64,000 nucleotides of DNA from a virus: positions 41,060 to 105,059 of IMG/VR virus record IMGVR_UViG_3300027797_000016. The stretch is one strand, 5' to 3'. Of this stretch, positions 6,566-46,716 are shown piece after piece. Every line of letters begins with the position of its first letter. Within the stretch, counting starts at the first letter, position 1. Both the position numbers and the translations under genes were made by a program. The notes beneath the pieces are model-generated. The model was not told the DNA's origin, did no database searches, and saw nothing but the letters and a program-made list of their open reading frames with translations.

Positions 6566-6825
6566 AATGCCTCCAAATAATCTGCGATTTCTTTAATACT
6601 TTCCAATTTTGGTTCAGTCTTTCTGGAAAGGTCAATCATTAGTCCGTCATTTTGATTTACAAAGGGTGATGTAGTTGGAGTATTTTCCTTATACCATTCA
6701 TCATTTCTTTTTTCTCTTGTGAAGTTTGTCCAAAGAAGTCTTGTTTTGTATTTTAGATTCAAATAATCTGCGATTTCTTTAATACTTTCCAATTTTGGTT
6801 CAGTCTTTCTGGAAAGGTCAGTCAT
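6562..6825 (-). CDS. Hypothetical protein with duplicated DLSRKTEPKLESIKEIADYL segment
   Basis: ORF track; 61-bp direct repeat. Confidence 0.7.
   Translation of the reverse strand: MTDLSRKTEPKLESIKEIADYLNLKYKTRLLWTNFTREKRNDEWYKENTPTTSPFVNQNDGLMIDLSRKTEPKLESIKEIADYLEAL
6574..6820. repeat. 61-bp exact direct repeat (6574-6634, 6760-6820)
   Basis: Read directly. Confidence 0.95.
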
Positions 6826-36888: not shown

Positions 36889-39800
36889 TTAGTTTAGAAA
36901 GTTTTGTCCTACAACAACACCATACCAACTAGAACCACCATCAAAGGTCTTATAGGAATAGATATCACTTCTACCTGCAGTTGGTGTTACAATTGGAATA
37001 ACTCCACCACCAGGCCAATTAACAGTAATTGGTGGTCCATCACCAGTTGTAAAGGTATTAATACCAACTCCAAATGCAGCAGTTTGTGTAATTTTAATTG
37101 TAAAGGAACTTACTTCACCTGGAGGATTTGTGATTGTAAAGGAGTTTACCTTATCAGTTGCAGATAATAAGAAGTTCTGTGCTCTTGAGAGATCAACAGT
37201 AACAACATTTGATGCAATAGAAAGTGTTTTTACTGCTTCTCTTGAAGTCTTAATTCTTAAAGTACCCTCAACATCAAGTTTTGTTCTTGGTACTGTGGTT
37301 CCAATACCAACATTAGGACCAACAGTTGTGATTGCAGTTCCACCACTACCAACTACAAGTGTTGCAGTGGTAACGATACCAAGATTAATCGTACCAGTTC
37401 CACCAGAGAAGTTAAAGGAACTTGCAGTAATAATACCAGTGATGATTACATTATTTGCACTTAAGGTATTATTAAATCTTGCAGTATTATTGACCCAAAG
37501 TGAAGTTCCACCAGCGCCAACTGCACCAACCTCAAGTTTAAATCGTGGAACAGAAGTACCAATACCAACATTATTAAGTGCAGTATTATAAATGCCTCCA
37601 GATATTTGAGTCCATCCTGCTGCTGGGACAGTTACTCCAAATAGTCTGGATCCATCACCAACAAAATATGTTGCTGTTAATGTACCAACAATATTTGTAC
37701 CTCCAATAACGTGAAGTTTATATTGATTTGCAGTGGTTCCAATACCAACTCCACCATTTCCATCTATAGAAACTTGAGTTGTTCCAGAACCAACCAGAAG
37801 TTTTGATGTTCCTGGATTATTAGTTGCAATACCAATAGCATCAAAGATGCCAATATTAGCAGTTTTAGAAATACTTACATTACCAAAACGATACCATTCA
37901 TTATCTAAAGTATAAATCCAACCAACATAACCACCCTTCTCTGGGTTGTTAAGGTATACAATGTCTCCTGGGTTTCCTGAAAGTGTTGGTTCAGTGATTC
38001 CTACAGTATACTTTCTTGAGACTATTTCATCACCCTGTAAAAAGAGTGAGTTTGCCTCAAGACCATCAGTAGAAGTTGAGGTTACTTTACCTCTTAAAAC
38101 TACAGGTCCATTAAACTCTGAGATTGCCTTACTATCAGGACCACCCTCTACACGAATTGAGCGACTAAAGTTACCCTCAACTGGACTAATCACATTCAGT
38201 CCAGGAAGACCTCCAATGTCTTCACCAGTCACTGTTTGTATAGGGGTATCAAAGATGTCTTCTTGACCGGTAATAGAACTTAATCTTTTATTACCAGAGT
38301 ATGAAATACCCTTATCATTCATACCAGTGTAGAAGTTAACACCACCATCTTTTTTAGTTGATTGTGCTAATAGTTCTTCTTGTAATGAGATTTGACGGTC
38401 TTGTTTGTCTGGGAATGCAGTTGAGTAGTTACCTGGACCATAACCAACATACTCAAAGGTATGTCCCGACGCTCTCATAATAGAGTGTCTTCTTAATTCA
38501 ATTGGCTCAACACGGATTCTTCTTACAACACTACCAATCGCGTGATTGACTGCACGAGTTCCTAATACACCACGGAACACCTTGATTGGGTTTGTAGGAG
38601 TACTTGGAACATTAGACTTGACTCTTACAATCTCATCATCAATCACCAGATAATCACCAATATTGATATCAAGATTTGATACATTAAGAAGATTAACTTC
38701 ATCAATTAGTGCATCAGGTATCAGTGCAGAAAGTGTAGTAGTAATACCAGCATAAGTTGGAACCATTCTACCATTCAGGTTCTCATTCTCTCTTGTAATC
38801 ACACCTTCATTTGAGGTAAAACCTTCACGATATGCAAGAAGAGTTCCTGTTGCTGCTGGAGCACTTGTAGAAACGCCAATATTCACAATAAAGGAGTTAA
38901 GACTTAAGTTCTCAGTAACAACAAACTGACCAGTATAAAGTGCTTCATTTGCACCAGTAATGCTAATCTTATTATCTACTTTCAGTCCGTGAGCATTGAT
39001 TGTGGTAATCGTTGCAATACCAATTACATTATTATAAGTAAGTGAACTAATACGAATTGCTTCACCAGTTAGATATGTGATTGCATTAGAAGTAAATACT
39101 GGACCAACTGTAGTGGAAATACCCGATACTGCAGAGGCAGATACTGCAGTAAAACTTGTTGCAGAACCTACATTCGTAATACGGTAAAGGTTGTTATAAT
39201 CCTGATAAGAAGTAGAAGTTACGCCAGAAATACTAACAACATCACCAACATTATTATAAATTTGAGTGACTGTAAGAACTGCACCACTAAATCCACCATA
39301 AGAACCAATACCAGTTACAGTCAGTGTATTACCGATTCCATATGCACTACCACCATCCATAATCTTCACATTAGTGATGCTTCCTGAACCATCAACAGTG
39401 ACTTTTGCAGTTGCTTGTTGACCTACAGTAGAAGTTCCAATACCTACAAGACTTGCATTATAATAGTCACCAGGAGTACCAGAACCATAACCTGTACCAG
39501 CATTTGAAATAGAAACTCTTGTAATACGATTGAGTCCGTGATCTAATGAAGTAAAGACATTATGTGAAGTGGATGATACTGAACGAATATCAGTCAGTCC
39601 AATACCAATATCACTATCATTAAATACCTTATTGATAGTTTCTTTTGTTAAACTATTACGAACATCATTCACTACAACTTCACCAATCAGTGAAGAAGAT
39701 GCAAAACACTTGGTTTCTTCAGGGTCTGCTTCTGGATTATCACGATTGATTTGTGGAAAAAGTTCTTTAACTGGTTGTGAGAACTTTTCATTAGTAAATG

Positions 39801-42681
39801 GAGCAACACTTGGAGCATTTGATGCATTAACAAGAGTTAAGTAATAAACACCATCTTGTTCTCCTGCAATATATTTCTGTGCTTCTTCACTTCTGTAGAT
39901 GAAATAAGTATTATTAAATTTCTTTCTTCTAAAATGTGGTAGTGATGTAGATCTATTTGTTGTATCACTTGTAAATGTGCCTGGATTTGTGGTTAATGAG
40001 AAACTAAATTGCTTAGTATTAGCAACTGCAGTCACAGTAAAGGTTCCATTAAATCCAAGATTTGCAGTACCTAAAGTATTATTAGTACTTATAATATTCA
40101 GTATCTCAACTTGAGAACCAATTGTAAGATTATGTGATAGTTCAGTTGTAATAGTTGCTGTGTTAGAACTCCAGATAGCATTTGCAATGAACTTAAAGTT
40201 TCTCTGCTCATTCACATTAGTAATAGATCCAGAACCAAAGTAAGTTTGGATTTCACTATTTGTTGCACCAATTGTTGTGTTACTTTCCTGAATAATAAAT
40301 CCATCACTTGGCGGTCTTGCGGTTGCACCAGAGTCTGATGGGAGAACATAACGAACACGATAGATTGTATCTACTGCATTACGATCATCAGTGAGACGAT
40401 TAAAGAATGTTCTTGGAGTTGCATCACCAAGAACAGAAGATCCAAGACTTACAATCGTTGAGTAAATGGTGTTATTAGATGTTGCAACTTTAATGTACCA
40501 TTGACCTTGAGTATCATCAAACTGAATTGGATGTCCAATGTCTCCAGGATTCTTATCACTAACACGACTTGCAACAGTTAGAGTTCCACCCTTTGCATTA
40601 ATAATGAGTGGTGTTGCACCGATTGCATCATTCTGGGTTTTGGCAATCTTGATTTGATTTGTTCCAATTCCTGACGTAATCGCATAATAAACTGTATTAG
40701 GAGTCATTCCATCAGGAAGTTGACCTGTATCACCAATCACACGAATACTTTCACCATTTGCAAAAGTATGTGCAGTTGTAAGAGTGAGTGTATTGCTTGT
40801 AATGCTATTGACTCCTACACTTCTTCCTACAAAAAACTCTTTCTCACTAGAAGTTTGAGAATCAGGCATTACGATTCTTGCACTATATTCAACGGGAGTT
40901 CCTCCAGATGAAATAAGTACTTTGAGAGTATCATTTTCTCTTGCACCAATACGATATCCTTCGAAAACATTTTCTGGTGGAACATCTGGATTAGTTTGTG
41001 CATAAAGATATAGATGTCCTGTGGATGCAACACCAACAGTTGCATTTACATCAATCGCATTAAACTCAATAGAGGTTTCGGTTTTTGAGAATTCTTTTGG
41101 TGGAATGATGTGTGTAATATATCCTTGGTCATCTTGTGGAAATGCAGTTCTTCTAAATCCCGATGCAACTAGTGCCTTTGCACCAAAGTTTGAGTTGGAG
41201 TTGGTGATAGACATATCTCCACCACTCTCAACCACAAAATGCTCTGCATAACCAATCGCAAATACTGATACGTTTTGAATGAATGCATCATTAGTTGCTT
41301 TAATATGGAAGTTACGATATTCTGGTTTAAAGATTGACCTGGAGTTTGTACTGATAGTCTCATTTCCAGAAACAGTGCTATCTTGATAAACACCAGAATC
41401 ATTATCATAAAGTACAAAAGCATTATCATCTTTTTGCAGTCCAATACCAGTGAATTGAGCAACCACCATCGATTTAAATCCAGTTGCTTTATTACCATCC
41501 GCGAGCAATCCACACATACCAAAGACAGAACGCAGAGTTATGTTAAAGATATATGGTGATGCAGAAGTTACAGTATCTGACTGAAGTGTTAAAGAAGATC
41601 CAGTAACTGAAGGAAGAGCAAGTGATGGTGCATTTTGTACTTGATAGGTAAGTTCTGTATCACTCAACTTTTCAGCAACAACAAATTGTCCATTATATCC
41701 AGGTGCAGTAATTCCTCCGATTCTAAATGGAGTATCAACATCTAAACCAGGAACTGCAGTGGTCGTTGTAACTGTGATGATTTTAGAAGGTACTACACCA
41801 TTTCCAGCACGAATACTTGAGATTCCTGCAGATTCTCCTATGGATCCTACAATACGGAACTCATCAATCTTTGGTTGAATATCAATACCAGAACTTGGAT
41901 AATCAGGTGAAATTTCACGACCTGATGATTGTCCATATGCAAGTCCAACTTTCTCATAATACATCTCAAGATCTGTGCGATCTGTGGAGTATGTTTGGAA
42001 AGGATCAGAAATATTTACATCGTTTACACCATCAGCATACTCAAAACACGCTAACTTATGATGTGAGAAGTTAGGAACAAATGTGTTGCTAGTGTAATCA
42101 ATATAACAGGTTCCATTAGGATCTGCATCAAACATTGAGAACTGCCAGAGATAGCAAGCACCAGTGACCCGGAATATTGCAGAACGTTCAATATTGTTAT
42201 TGGTTGGGTTTGGAACATACAGAGGTCTTATTTTCGTCTTTCTTAAATCAAGACCAACAATAGAAGTTCCTCTTGGAATAATGACCCCACCATTAATACT
42301 ATTCAGTTTGTAAAGTTGATTATTTGGGTCTACTAAATTAAAACTAGTGGTGAGGTCAAATGGTGGAAAGTCATTACTTGTAGATCCATTACGAAGTCTA
42401 TAGTTATTAGAACCATCAGGAATCCATCCTGGACGATTATCTACGATATGATCGCCAGGATATAGAAGAATTGTCGTTTTTGCGAATCTATCGTTATTCA
42501 GTCCTTGCTGATACGAAAATCTCGCAGATTCTATCAAAGAACGTTGAATAGTTTTAAATGGACGAGTTAATGAACTCCCTTGATTTTCAATAGAGTCAGT
42601 TGCATCAAGACTATTGGGATCTACATATATGATATTTCCACGAACAGATTTCAAAAAATTATTTAATCTTGAAAGACCCAT
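36889..42681 (-). CDS. Large virion structural protein, 1930 aa
   Basis: LSRL.NFLK...YVDPN..DATDS N-terminus typical of cyanomyoviruses; late promoter at 42712. Confidence 0.85.
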   Translation of the reverse strand: MGLSRLNNFLKSVRGNIIYVDPNSLDATDSIENQGSSLTRPFKTIQRSLIESARFSYQQGLNNDRFAKTTILLYPGDHIVDNRPGWIPDGSNNYRLRNGSTSNDFPPFDLTTSFNLVDPNNQLYKLNSINGGVIIPRGTSIVGLDLRKTKIRPLYVPNPTNNNIERSAIFRVTGACYLWQFSMFDADPNGTCYIDYTSNTFVPNFSHHKLACFEYADGVNDVNISDPFQTYSTDRTDLEMYYEKVGLAYGQSSGREISPDYPSSGIDIQPKIDEFRIVGSIGESAGISSIRAGNGVVPSKIITVTTTTAVPGLDVDTPFRIGGITAPGYNGQFVVAEKLSDTELTYQVQNAPSLALPSVTGSSLTLQSDTVTSASPYIFNITLRSVFGMCGLLADGNKATGFKSMVVAQFTGIGLQKDDNAFVLYDNDSGVYQDSTVSGNETISTNSRSIFKPEYRNFHIKATNDAFIQNVSVFAIGYAEHFVVESGGDMSITNSNSNFGAKALVASGFRRTAFPQDDQGYITHIIPPKEFSKTETSIEFNAIDVNATVGVASTGHLYLYAQTNPDVPPENVFEGYRIGARENDTLKVLISSGGTPVEYSARIVMPDSQTSSEKEFFVGRSVGVNSITSNTLTLTTAHTFANGESIRVIGDTGQLPDGMTPNTVYYAITSGIGTNQIKIAKTQNDAIGATPLIINAKGGTLTVASRVSDKNPGDIGHPIQFDDTQGQWYIKVATSNNTIYSTIVSLGSSVLGDATPRTFFNRLTDDRNAVDTIYRVRYVLPSDSGATARPPSDGFIIQESNTTIGATNSEIQTYFGSGSITNVNEQRNFKFIANAIWSSNTATITTELSHNLTIGSQVEILNIISTNNTLGTANLGFNGTFTVTAVANTKQFSFSLTTNPGTFTSDTTNRSTSLPHFRRKKFNNTYFIYRSEEAQKYIAGEQDGVYYLTLVNASNAPSVAPFTNEKFSQPVKELFPQINRDNPEADPEETKCFASSSLIGEVVVNDVRNSLTKETINKVFNDSDIGIGLTDIRSVSSTSHNVFTSLDHGLNRITRVSISNAGTGYGSGTPGDYYNASLVGIGTSTVGQQATAKVTVDGSGSITNVKIMDGGSAYGIGNTLTVTGIGSYGGFSGAVLTVTQIYNNVGDVVSISGVTSTSYQDYNNLYRITNVGSATSFTAVSASAVSGISTTVGPVFTSNAITYLTGEAIRISSLTYNNVIGIATITTINAHGLKVDNKISITGANEALYTGQFVVTENLSLNSFIVNIGVSTSAPAATGTLLAYREGFTSNEGVITRENENLNGRMVPTYAGITTTLSALIPDALIDEVNLLNVSNLDINIGDYLVIDDEIVRVKSNVPSTPTNPIKVFRGVLGTRAVNHAIGSVVRRIRVEPIELRRHSIMRASGHTFEYVGYGPGNYSTAFPDKQDRQISLQEELLAQSTKKDGGVNFYTGMNDKGISYSGNKRLSSITGQEDIFDTPIQTVTGEDIGGLPGLNVISPVEGNFSRSIRVEGGPDSKAISEFNGPVVLRGKVTSTSTDGLEANSLFLQGDEIVSRKYTVGITEPTLSGNPGDIVYLNNPEKGGYVGWIYTLDNEWYRFGNVSISKTANIGIFDAIGIATNNPGTSKLLVGSGTTQVSIDGNGGVGIGTTANQYKLHVIGGTNIVGTLTATYFVGDGSRLFGVTVPAAGWTQISGGIYNTALNNVGIGTSVPRFKLEVGAVGAGGTSLWVNNTARFNNTLSANNVIITGIITASSFNFSGGTGTINLGIVTTATLVVGSGGTAITTVGPNVGIGTTVPRTKLDVEGTLRIKTSREAVKTLSIASNVVTVDLSRAQNFLLSATDKVNSFTITNPPGEVSSFTIKITQTAAFGVGINTFTTGDGPPITVNWPGGGVIPIVTPTAGRSDIYSYKTFDGGSSWYGVVVGQNFLN

Positions 42682-45216: not shown

Positions 45217-45288
45217 AGCCCCCGATCTGATTTGAACAGACGGCCGACGGTTTACAAAACCGTTGCTCTACCACTGAGCTACAAGGGC
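45217..45288 (-). tRNA. trnT: tRNA-Thr(UGU), no encoded CCA
   Basis: GCCCTTGTAGCTCAGTGGTAGAGCA-ACGGT-TTTGTAA-ACCGT...GTTCAAATC...GGGGGCT cloverleaf. Confidence 0.95.
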
Positions 45289-45599: not shown

Positions 45600-46328
45600 T
45601 TATTTATTGATCCATTTGCGAATAGAATTATCACTAACACCATATTTTTTACCTACAGCAAGATAAGAACTTTCTTTTACTTCTTGTAATAATTGTTCTT
45701 TAGAAGGTCTTTCAACTTTTCTTTGAGATTTTGAATAACAACTATTACAAAGACCCGTTTTGCAGTTTGTTTTTAATTCAACCTCACACGAAGAACATTT
45801 ATGAATTTTTTTGGTTCGTATTATTTGAATTTTATTTTTTATTGTTTGTGAGTTTTTATTTTTCTTATTTTTACCACGATATGTTGGTGTTTTAGCGTGG
45901 CAGTTGGGACATAATATTTTTAGATTTTCTAACATATTGTTATAATGGTCTCCATCAATATGATCTAATTCTAAAGGTATTGGTTCTCCTAACCATTCAC
46001 TCAACTCACAACATTCGCATCTATGATTCTTTAATCCCTCTATAATTAATCTTTTTCGCAATTTGTTAGAATTGTACTCATAATTCTTAACAAGTATTTC
46101 GCTTAATGGAGTTGTATTAAACTTGTGAGTTTTCCCCTTTAGATGTCCTTGACCTGTAAAATGTGAAGTGTCTATTCCATAAAGTTTTTCAAATTTTTTA
46201 AATACTCTATAGTTTCCACCTCTTGGAGATAATCCAAGTTTTGTAAGTGCTTGTGCTATAGAAAAACTTTCTTCTACTGCTTTTTTAAAGTCTTCTATAG
46301 AATATGAATGTTTCATACTGATAAACAT
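45600..46328 (-). CDS. Free-standing HNH endonuclease with zinc ribbons (start at 46328 or 46316)
   Basis: CECC...LELDHIDGD..NN..ENLKILCPNCH; C-terminal HTH. Confidence 0.9.
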   Translation of the reverse strand: MFISMKHSYSIEDFKKAVEESFSIAQALTKLGLSPRGGNYRVFKKFEKLYGIDTSHFTGQGHLKGKTHKFNTTPLSEILVKNYEYNSNKLRKRLIIEGLKNHRCECCELSEWLGEPIPLELDHIDGDHYNNMLENLKILCPNCHAKTPTYRGKNKKNKNSQTIKNKIQIIRTKKIHKCSSCEVELKTNCKTGLCNSCYSKSQRKVERPSKEQLLQEVKESSYLAVGKKYGVSDNSIRKWINK

Positions 46329-46363
46329 ATTGTATAGTTATTTATATAAGTTTATCAGTTCAA

Positions 46364-46716
46364 TAGGAGCGGGGGGACTTGAACCCCCACGGTCTAAGAC
46401 CAGCGGATTTTACTTACCACTATAGTTTTCACTACCCTTTCGGTTTGTGGTCTGGACTATGCCTTCACCATTTACTAAAAGTAATTAGGTGGGTGATTAT
46501 AGTCTCTACACGTTTTGTATTCTTTCAGATAATTCAAACCCTCTCTGAAACCACATTGGGTAGCGGTTGTCTTTCCAACTGTCATACAACTTCGCTCGGC
46601 GTTGGCATCAGCATTACCCGTTAAGCGTTCACCGAATTTACACCTTACTACTTACTCGTTTCCAAATAAGCGACCCATTTTGAGTCCGATGCGGCTACCA
46701 ATTACGCCACACTCCC
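46364..46716 (-). tRNA. trnL: tRNA-Leu(UAA) split by a group I intron (exons 46716-46683 and 46412-46364)
   Basis: GGGAGTGTGGCGTAATTGGTAGCCGCATCGGACT | TAAAATCCGCTGGTCTTAGACCGTGGGGGTTCAAGTCCCCCCGCTCCTA; long variable arm. Confidence 0.9.
46413..46682 (-). mobile_element. Group I intron, 270 nt, no ORF
   Basis: P1 GACU^CA/UGGGUC with U.G; P AAUUCGGUGAA; Q AACGCCGAGC; R GUAGAGACUA; S AGGCAUAGUCC; P2 and P9 GAAA loops; terminal G. Confidence 0.9.

Follow-up and report, generated by a model that had tools for sequence, protein, structure and literature searches.

The locus raises the question of what separates U33 from U34 in a phage tRNA-Leu(UAA) gene, and whether the two halves of the gene belong together or, as an earlier note on this DNA had proposed, were assembled from different tRNA genes. 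The window, as the whole 64,000-nucleotide stretch of DNA analysed is called here, makes up the last (3′) 64 kb of an IMG/VR virus record of 105 kb, whose completeness is estimated at 42%. Large ORFs in the vicinity match PHROGs of the T4-type baseplate, tail and tail fibres, the best DNA matches of the window are to Synechococcus myoviruses (e.g. S-SM2, Bellamy), and judged by these matches the host genome is an uncultured T4-like cyanophage. The features of the locus, all on the minus strand, are as follows.

46683-46716, minus strand: tRNA-Leu(UAA) exon 1, 34 nt, with the acceptor 5′ strand, D arm, anticodon-stem 5′ strand, C32 and U33
46413-46682, minus strand: group I intron, 270 nt, ORF-less, with P1-P9 including the P3/P7 pseudoknot and a P6 extension of ~70 nt
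46672-46686, minus strand: P1, exon G30-A31-C32-U33 and intron C+1 against the guide GGGUC (46676-46672)
46413, minus strand: omega G (terminal G, 3′ splice site), the final intron base, directly 5′ of exon 2
46364-46412, minus strand: tRNA-Leu(UAA) exon 2, with the anticodon UAA, anticodon-stem 3′ strand, long variable arm, T arm, acceptor 3′ strand and A73
45600-46328, minus strand: free-standing HNH endonuclease gene, 242 aa, beginning 35 nt past the end of exon 2, in the same orientation
45217-45288, minus strand: tRNA-Thr(UGU), the downstream neighbour, called by ARAGORN and the Rfam tRNA model

The split tRNA-Leu was missed by ARAGORN and by the Rfam tRNA model, both of which call only the neighbouring tRNA-Thr(UGU); because tRNA finders miss such a gene, the tRNA sets of this phage and of many other uncultured phages are under-counted. 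In a permissive scan of 1.1 kb, the Rfam model Intron_gpI (RF00028) matched 46431-46692 on the minus strand with 30 bits (E=1.7e-5), short of the Rfam gathering score of 50 bits. According to Williams 2020 (bioRxiv 10.1101/2020.01.27.920355), none of the 12 seeds of this model is bacterial, tRNA introns were accepted from 18-20 bits, and IC3 is the label of all four classical classes of intron in bacterial tRNAs; the core blocks of the window intron resemble the Williams seeds, an indirect pointer to that subgroup. The intron has the P1 U.G wobble, the terminal G and the P3-P8 core helices with P3/P7 pseudoknot expected of group I. Joined in silico, the exons are called by ARAGORN as an 83-nt tRNA-Leu(taa). 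The group I intron in a phage tRNA-Leu(UAA) gene, recognized by the earlier note from the letters alone, is confirmed and lies on the minus strand. A second Intron_gpI match (window 38000-38208, minus strand, 13.9 bits) lies inside an uninterrupted ORF of 1930 aa and was taken as a chance match. When the phage record was searched by pattern, the intron core turned up nowhere else.

Exon 1 ends in ...AUCGGACU (GGACU), its final base being U33; the intron begins with CAAAAUGGGUCGC and ends with GGUAAG; exon 2 starts with UAAAAUCCGC and ends with the discriminator A, the CCA not being encoded. The conserved U.G pair of the Rfam model aligns to U46683.G46675, the wobble at the splice site in P1, which was seen in all ten related introns inserted at 33/34, and G46413 is read directly before UAA. 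The position of the splice site is unambiguous because unlike bases flank each junction (U|C for the 5′ site, G|U for the 3′ site), such that a shifted cut would give another product; moreover, the matches of exon 1 and exon 2 in uninterrupted homologues abut exactly at the proposed junction. A 5′ cut after CAAAAU was ruled out, as the intron would then have to end in U, and so was a cut at 34/35, for which exon 1 would have to end in UU, but it ends in U33 followed by C, and exon 2 opens with U34. The insertion is at 33/34 and the entire anticodon consequently lies in exon 2; in this, as in the U.G splice site after U33 and the terminal G before UAA, the earlier note was right. The three irregular stem positions that it listed for the joined tRNA (G1.U72, U6.G67 and U27xC43) are all there, the last leaving an anticodon stem of just four pairs. 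The guide region and exon 2 show no visible P10 pairing.

The fold was examined in an alignment of ten introns inserted at 33/34, four of them in Leu(UAA) hosts and six in CAU hosts. RNAalifold recovered P2, P3, P4, P5, P6, P8 and the P9 domain, and was misled at one point by the ability of exon GGACU to pair with the P7 3′ strand AGUCC; this pairing was replaced by hand-written P1 and P7, which were then tested. With P1 and the P3/P7 pseudoknot written in, 96.9% of the cells of 52 pairs are paired, with changes on both sides (compensatory) in 26 pairs; none of 500 shuffles scored as high, and sliding the partners by 1-3 columns reduced pairing to 33-46%. Compensatory changes occur in P2, P3, P4, P5, P6 and P8, while P7, the outer P9 stem and most of P1 barely vary and are therefore uninformative either way. 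The group I fold is thus supported by covariation across ten related introns. The end of exon 1 (GGACU, window 46683-46687) is nearly the same as the P7 5′ strand AGACU (46501-46505) and can also pair with the P7 3′ strand AGUCC (46454-46458), and the GGACU/AGUCC pairing is a possible competing fold in the precursor.

The intron 3′ end GAAARCUAUAGUGGUAAG was found by a pattern scan in at least 119 viral IMG/VR contigs, and the junction pattern (intron 3′ end plus UAAAAUCC) in 13 viral contigs. An architecture that recurs so widely, and whose helices covary, is far beyond chance. The intron is a member of a large and unannotated family of such introns in viral tRNA genes. The rule by which host tRNAs were reconstructed asked for complementary acceptor strands, an anticodon stem of 5 bp with a loop of 7 nt, U33 and a U before the cut; it was adopted because ARAGORN, given every candidate cut, was too permissive to decide between them. 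The resulting counts describe a biased sample, as the viral loci were collected by one conserved 3′-end pattern: among the matches listed, the commonest setting is 34/35 in tRNA-Leu(UAA) (~63 of the 106 reconstructed loci), with 13 loci, window included, at 33/34 in tRNA-Leu(UAA), 9 at 33/34 in tRNA(CAU), 10 at 34/35 in tRNA(UCA) and 5 at 34/35 in tRNA(UCU). Also among the matches listed, UAU, UGA, UGU and GUU tRNAs host a few family introns and crAss-like helicase genes host a handful. All of the 33/34 introns carry the guide GGGUC against exon (G)GACU, and the 34/35 Leu introns carry UUGAGU against ACUU.

The nearest relative among the matches listed, L011, is 92% identical to the window in the intron, 82% in exon 1, 63% in exon 2 and ~40% in the flanks. 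The differences between the two introns are in loops or are compensatory, one such pair falling in the P6 extension (CAGA/UCUG vs CGGA/UCCG), an extension of ~70 nt that is otherwise found only in L011. Since a 92%-identical copy resides in a different tRNA-Leu gene, the intron is mobile. In a maximum likelihood tree of the intron core (168 columns, without P1 and without the 3′ end fixed by the pattern; many deep forks are weak), the window intron groups with those of L011 and L007 (100/88), and the next relative is the CAU-hosted L072, all three relatives being at 33/34. A clade with support of 90/94 holds most of the 33/34 Leu introns, along with 33/34 CAU introns and three 34/35 introns (L053, L036, L129). 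Monophyly of the 33/34 Leu introns is rejected by the AU test (p=0.013), as is that of all 33/34 introns taken together, though less strongly (p=0.026). Insertion sites and host tRNAs have switched repeatedly in the family.

Such switching invites the explanation that a classical 34/35 tRNA-Leu intron changed its guide and slid one base upstream within the same gene, and the nesting of L053, L036 and L129 in a mostly 33/34 clade indicates that site switches do happen. For the window intron this is very unlikely: among the matches listed, L011, L007 and then L072 are all 33/34 introns, the guides GGGUC and UUGAGU differ in kind, and the close cyanophage relatives of the exons are intronless rather than carriers of a 34/35 intron.

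Several other loci of the family deserve mention in their own right. Group I introns lie in crAss-like DnaB-type helicase genes (L001:1501-1580, L002:1501-1553, L024, L104), with GIY-YIG endonuclease genes annotated in L001 and L002; because the 3′ core and end of the helicase introns are near-identical to those of the tRNA introns, the family crosses between tRNA and protein-coding hosts. Some split viral UAA tRNAs (L007:4757-5218, L127, L026, L084, L036, L118, L050) have a short variable loop of ~5 nt and a class I shape, unlike bacterial tRNA-Leu, and in L007 the apparent start of a second, class II-type tRNA-Leu follows directly after the split UAA tRNA. The ten viral loci with a tRNA(UCA) split at 34/35 (L029, L056, L057, L058, L066, L101, L106, L108, L125, L131) have a long variable arm and, where the acceptor stem is well placed, a discriminator G; they may be UGA-reading tRNAs (suppressor or Sec-like) that tRNA finders overlook. 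A cultured jumbo phage, Agrobacterium phage Atu_ph07 (MF403008.1, near 112.9-113.3 kb; L141:454-815), has an unannotated tRNA-Leu(UAA) split at 34/35 by a family intron; a 'hypothetical protein' CDS is annotated over the 3′ part of this tRNA gene.

It is very unlikely that the locus of the window is dead, with an intron that has ceased to splice and a tRNA-Leu reduced to a pseudogene that the phage still carries. The Rfam score below the gathering cut-off, the weakened anticodon stem and the lack of a visible P10 would fit such decay, and the record, being a fragment, leaves room for another tRNA-Leu gene elsewhere in the phage. Against it, the window intron matches every column that is identical in all ten aligned introns and all of its helices pair; its differences from L011 fall in loops or are compensatory; the tRNA stems match those of functional-looking intronless relatives; and its score with the same Rfam model exceeds the level from which tRNA introns were taken by Williams (2020).

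The origin of the exons was addressed by searching each exon separately. The best match of exon 1 is to Synechococcus phage DSL-LC03 (40684-40717, 91% identical), and the best match of exon 2 is to the directly abutting 40718-40768 of the same phage (84% identical). In DSL-LC03, S-SSM4 (exon 1 at 6709-6742, exon 2 at 6743-6790), S-SSM6b and P-RSM1, both exons match adjoining coordinates of uninterrupted cyanophage tRNA-Leu(UAA) genes. The exons are native to cyanophage tRNA-Leu(UAA) and are not chimeric. Because the intron is 92% identical to that of L011 and the exons are nearer to intronless cyanophage genes, intron and exons have separate histories, a sign of a mobile intron and not of a divide between exon 1 and exon 2. 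The imperfect stems had suggested otherwise to the earlier note, which named intronless relatives with the same mismatches as the observation that would refute its idea, and that observation was made: G1.U72 and a 27x43 mismatch are present in all three intronless genes read, the latter as UxC in DSL-LC03 and S-SSM4 and as CxU in P-RSM1. Since the imperfect fit is found without any intron, it is a trait of the cyanophage tRNA lineage. Position 6:67 is C-G in DSL-LC03 and S-SSM4, U.G in the window and U-A in P-RSM1, which reads as an ordinary compensatory series.

The other ground for a chimera was the start of the intron, CAAAAU, understood as the mimic of a CAA 3′ exon. The starts of related 33/34 introns vary (CAAAAU, CAAAUG, CUUAAG, CAUUAA, CAAUGC, UUUUAA, ACAAGU, CGAAUG or a long hairpin), and one CAU-hosted 33/34 intron starts with UAAAAU. 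Base +1 is C or U in most of the 33/34 relatives, where it is able to pair with a G of the guide region. By this comparison CAAAAU is a variable, A-rich P1 loop and not the relic of an exon. A Leu(CAA) host is absent from the 106 split tRNAs reconstructed among the matches listed. That exon 1 and the intron derive from a Leu(CAA)-type gene and were joined by recombination to a UAA exon 2 of unrelated origin, exon swapping having changed the anticodon, is accordingly scarcely credible: the unspliced 5′ side does read CU-CAA-AA, the stems are irregular at the three positions named, and exon 1 is more like that of L011 (the nearest intron-bearing gene) than exon 2 is, but both exons are nearer to the same uninterrupted cyanophage genes than to L011, intronless relatives share the irregularities at 1:72 and 27:43, the intron start is not conserved, and the supposed donor has no counterpart among those reconstructed hosts. 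Stem 'defects' and anticodon look-alikes at intron borders should be compared with intronless relatives before exon shuffling is claimed.

Very probably, then, the window contains an intact, ORF-less, mobile group I intron between U33 and U34 of the phage's own tRNA-Leu(UAA), with native exons. By its conserved parts the intron is predicted to be self-splicing. The precursor would fold so that G30-A31-C32-U33 of the anticodon-stem 5′ strand pairs with the guide GGGUC to form P1; free guanosine would attack after the U33.G wobble pair, the released exon 1 would attack after the terminal G46413, and ...GGACU would be joined to UAAAAUCC... to give a normal 83-nt tRNA-Leu(UAA). The intron itself would be a selfish mobile element, one of a large family that occupies anticodon loops in the tRNA genes of viruses and bacteria and repeatedly changes host tRNA and site, the window copy having presumably entered a resident cyanophage tRNA-Leu(UAA). 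The HNH gene downstream probably encodes the nuclease that drives the spread of the locus.

The product of the HNH gene matches PHROG 10822 HNH endonuclease (E=1.2e-55), with a sub-threshold match to Pfam HNH_3, and members of the family, some of them annotated as hegA, occur widely in phages. In dozens of viral loci a homologue lies next to or within a tRNA gene split by an intron. By tblastn against the collected loci, homologues of 47-54% identity were located ~60 nt downstream of a tRNA-Leu split at 34/35 (L099, L060, L107, L114), others within long introns (L062, L067, L124, L027, L043, L077), and a copy of 78% identity beside the split tRNA of L050. The order tRNA-Leu(UAA), HNH gene, tRNA-Thr(UGU) is common to the window and DSL-LC03, where the gene after the intronless tRNA-Leu is shorter and has an HNH core of 57% identity. 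The spacer from the tRNA 3′ end to the HNH start (window 46330-46363; GAAC.GATAAACTTATATAA) is common to the window and L050, which share it along with the 78%-identical HNH gene though their tRNAs and intron sites differ (34/35 in L050). The HNH cassette appears to travel with a leader of its own and to insert directly behind tRNA genes.

Collaborative homing is the arrangement in which an ORF-less intron is served by a neighbouring free-standing endonuclease, as in the psbA intron/F-CphI pair of cyanophages and the nrdA intron/MobE pair of Aeromonas phage Aeh1. The locus of the window resembles these pairs in that an intron without an ORF lies in a gene that directly adjoins a free-standing HNH gene, homologues of which are inside related introns elsewhere; it differs in that the putative target is a tRNA gene and in that the related HNH core also follows an intronless tRNA-Leu. 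The HNH gene is probably a homing endonuclease linked to the tRNA/intron locus, the link being one of recurrent neighbourhood, given that a similar core follows the intronless gene of DSL-LC03. On the same recurrent neighbourhood, collaborative homing by the intron and HNH pair is plausible. A broader reading may be offered tentatively, as a possibility with somewhat more against it than for it: that phage tRNA genes harbour a large store of group I introns, nearly all of it unannotated, that these introns and one HNH family make up two-part homing elements that retarget anticodon-loop sites and tRNA species by a change of a 5-nt guide, and that the window intron together with its HNH gene acts as a weapon on co-infecting relatives whose tRNA-Leu loci lack the intron. 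If this two-part reading were true, the HNH gene would be sometimes within the intron and sometimes free-standing beside the tRNA.

Among known systems, phage introns are the first comparison. A 2014 review (PMC3984707) placed all phage group I introns then known in protein-coding genes, despite the many tRNA genes of phages, and a search of later literature found no description of group I introns in phage tRNA genes; one short pattern sufficed here to retrieve at least 119 viral contigs with introns of the family. Bacterial tRNA genes are the second comparison. In Williams 2020 (bioRxiv 10.1101/2020.01.27.920355), a survey of bacterial and archaeal genomes only, settings are named by position in the anticodon loop, and 17 new ones are added to the classical Leu.3Ug (34/35), fMet.2Ug (33/34), Arg.5Ug and Ile2.5Ug. 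The classical cyanobacterial and plastid Leu.3Ug intron has the same host isoacceptor as the window intron, a similarly compact overall fold and a near-identical 3′ end. However, it is inserted one base later (U34|A35), a site other than that of the window intron, with the guide UUGAGU against ACUU, and most Leu.3Ug-type introns fall outside the clade of the window intron in the core tree. The cyanobacterial fMet.2Ug introns, in tRNA(CAU) after U33, share the 33/34 insertion point, and viral tRNA(CAU) introns at 33/34 have the same GGGUC guide and are intermixed with 33/34 Leu(UAA) introns in the core tree; the earlier note's description of 33/34 as the site of the tRNA-fMet type agrees with both. 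The host in the window differs, being a class II tRNA-Leu(UAA) and not a class I tRNA(CAU).

The closest setting is the bacterial Leu.2Ug, which is represented in the seed alignment of Williams 2020 (bioRxiv 10.1101/2020.01.27.920355) by Eba21.Leu.2Ug with a P1 of GGACUC...GGGUCC. The window intron likewise has a tRNA-Leu host, insertion after loop position 2 (U33), U at -1, a terminal G and the P1 design GGACU/C ... GGGUC(C). Chromosomal tRNA-Leu(UAA) genes split at 33/34 were also found in the tRNA clusters of two gammaproteobacterial MAGs (L138, L139), one labelled Thiotrichales; the other four of the six pattern matches in genome contigs were chance matches without a tRNA. The 33/34 tRNA-Leu setting is already listed for bacteria by Williams 2020, and as a kind of element the window intron is not new. 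In comparison with Leu.2Ug, the window copy resides in a T4-like cyanophage, carries a P6 extension of ~70 nt and is followed by a free-standing HNH gene.
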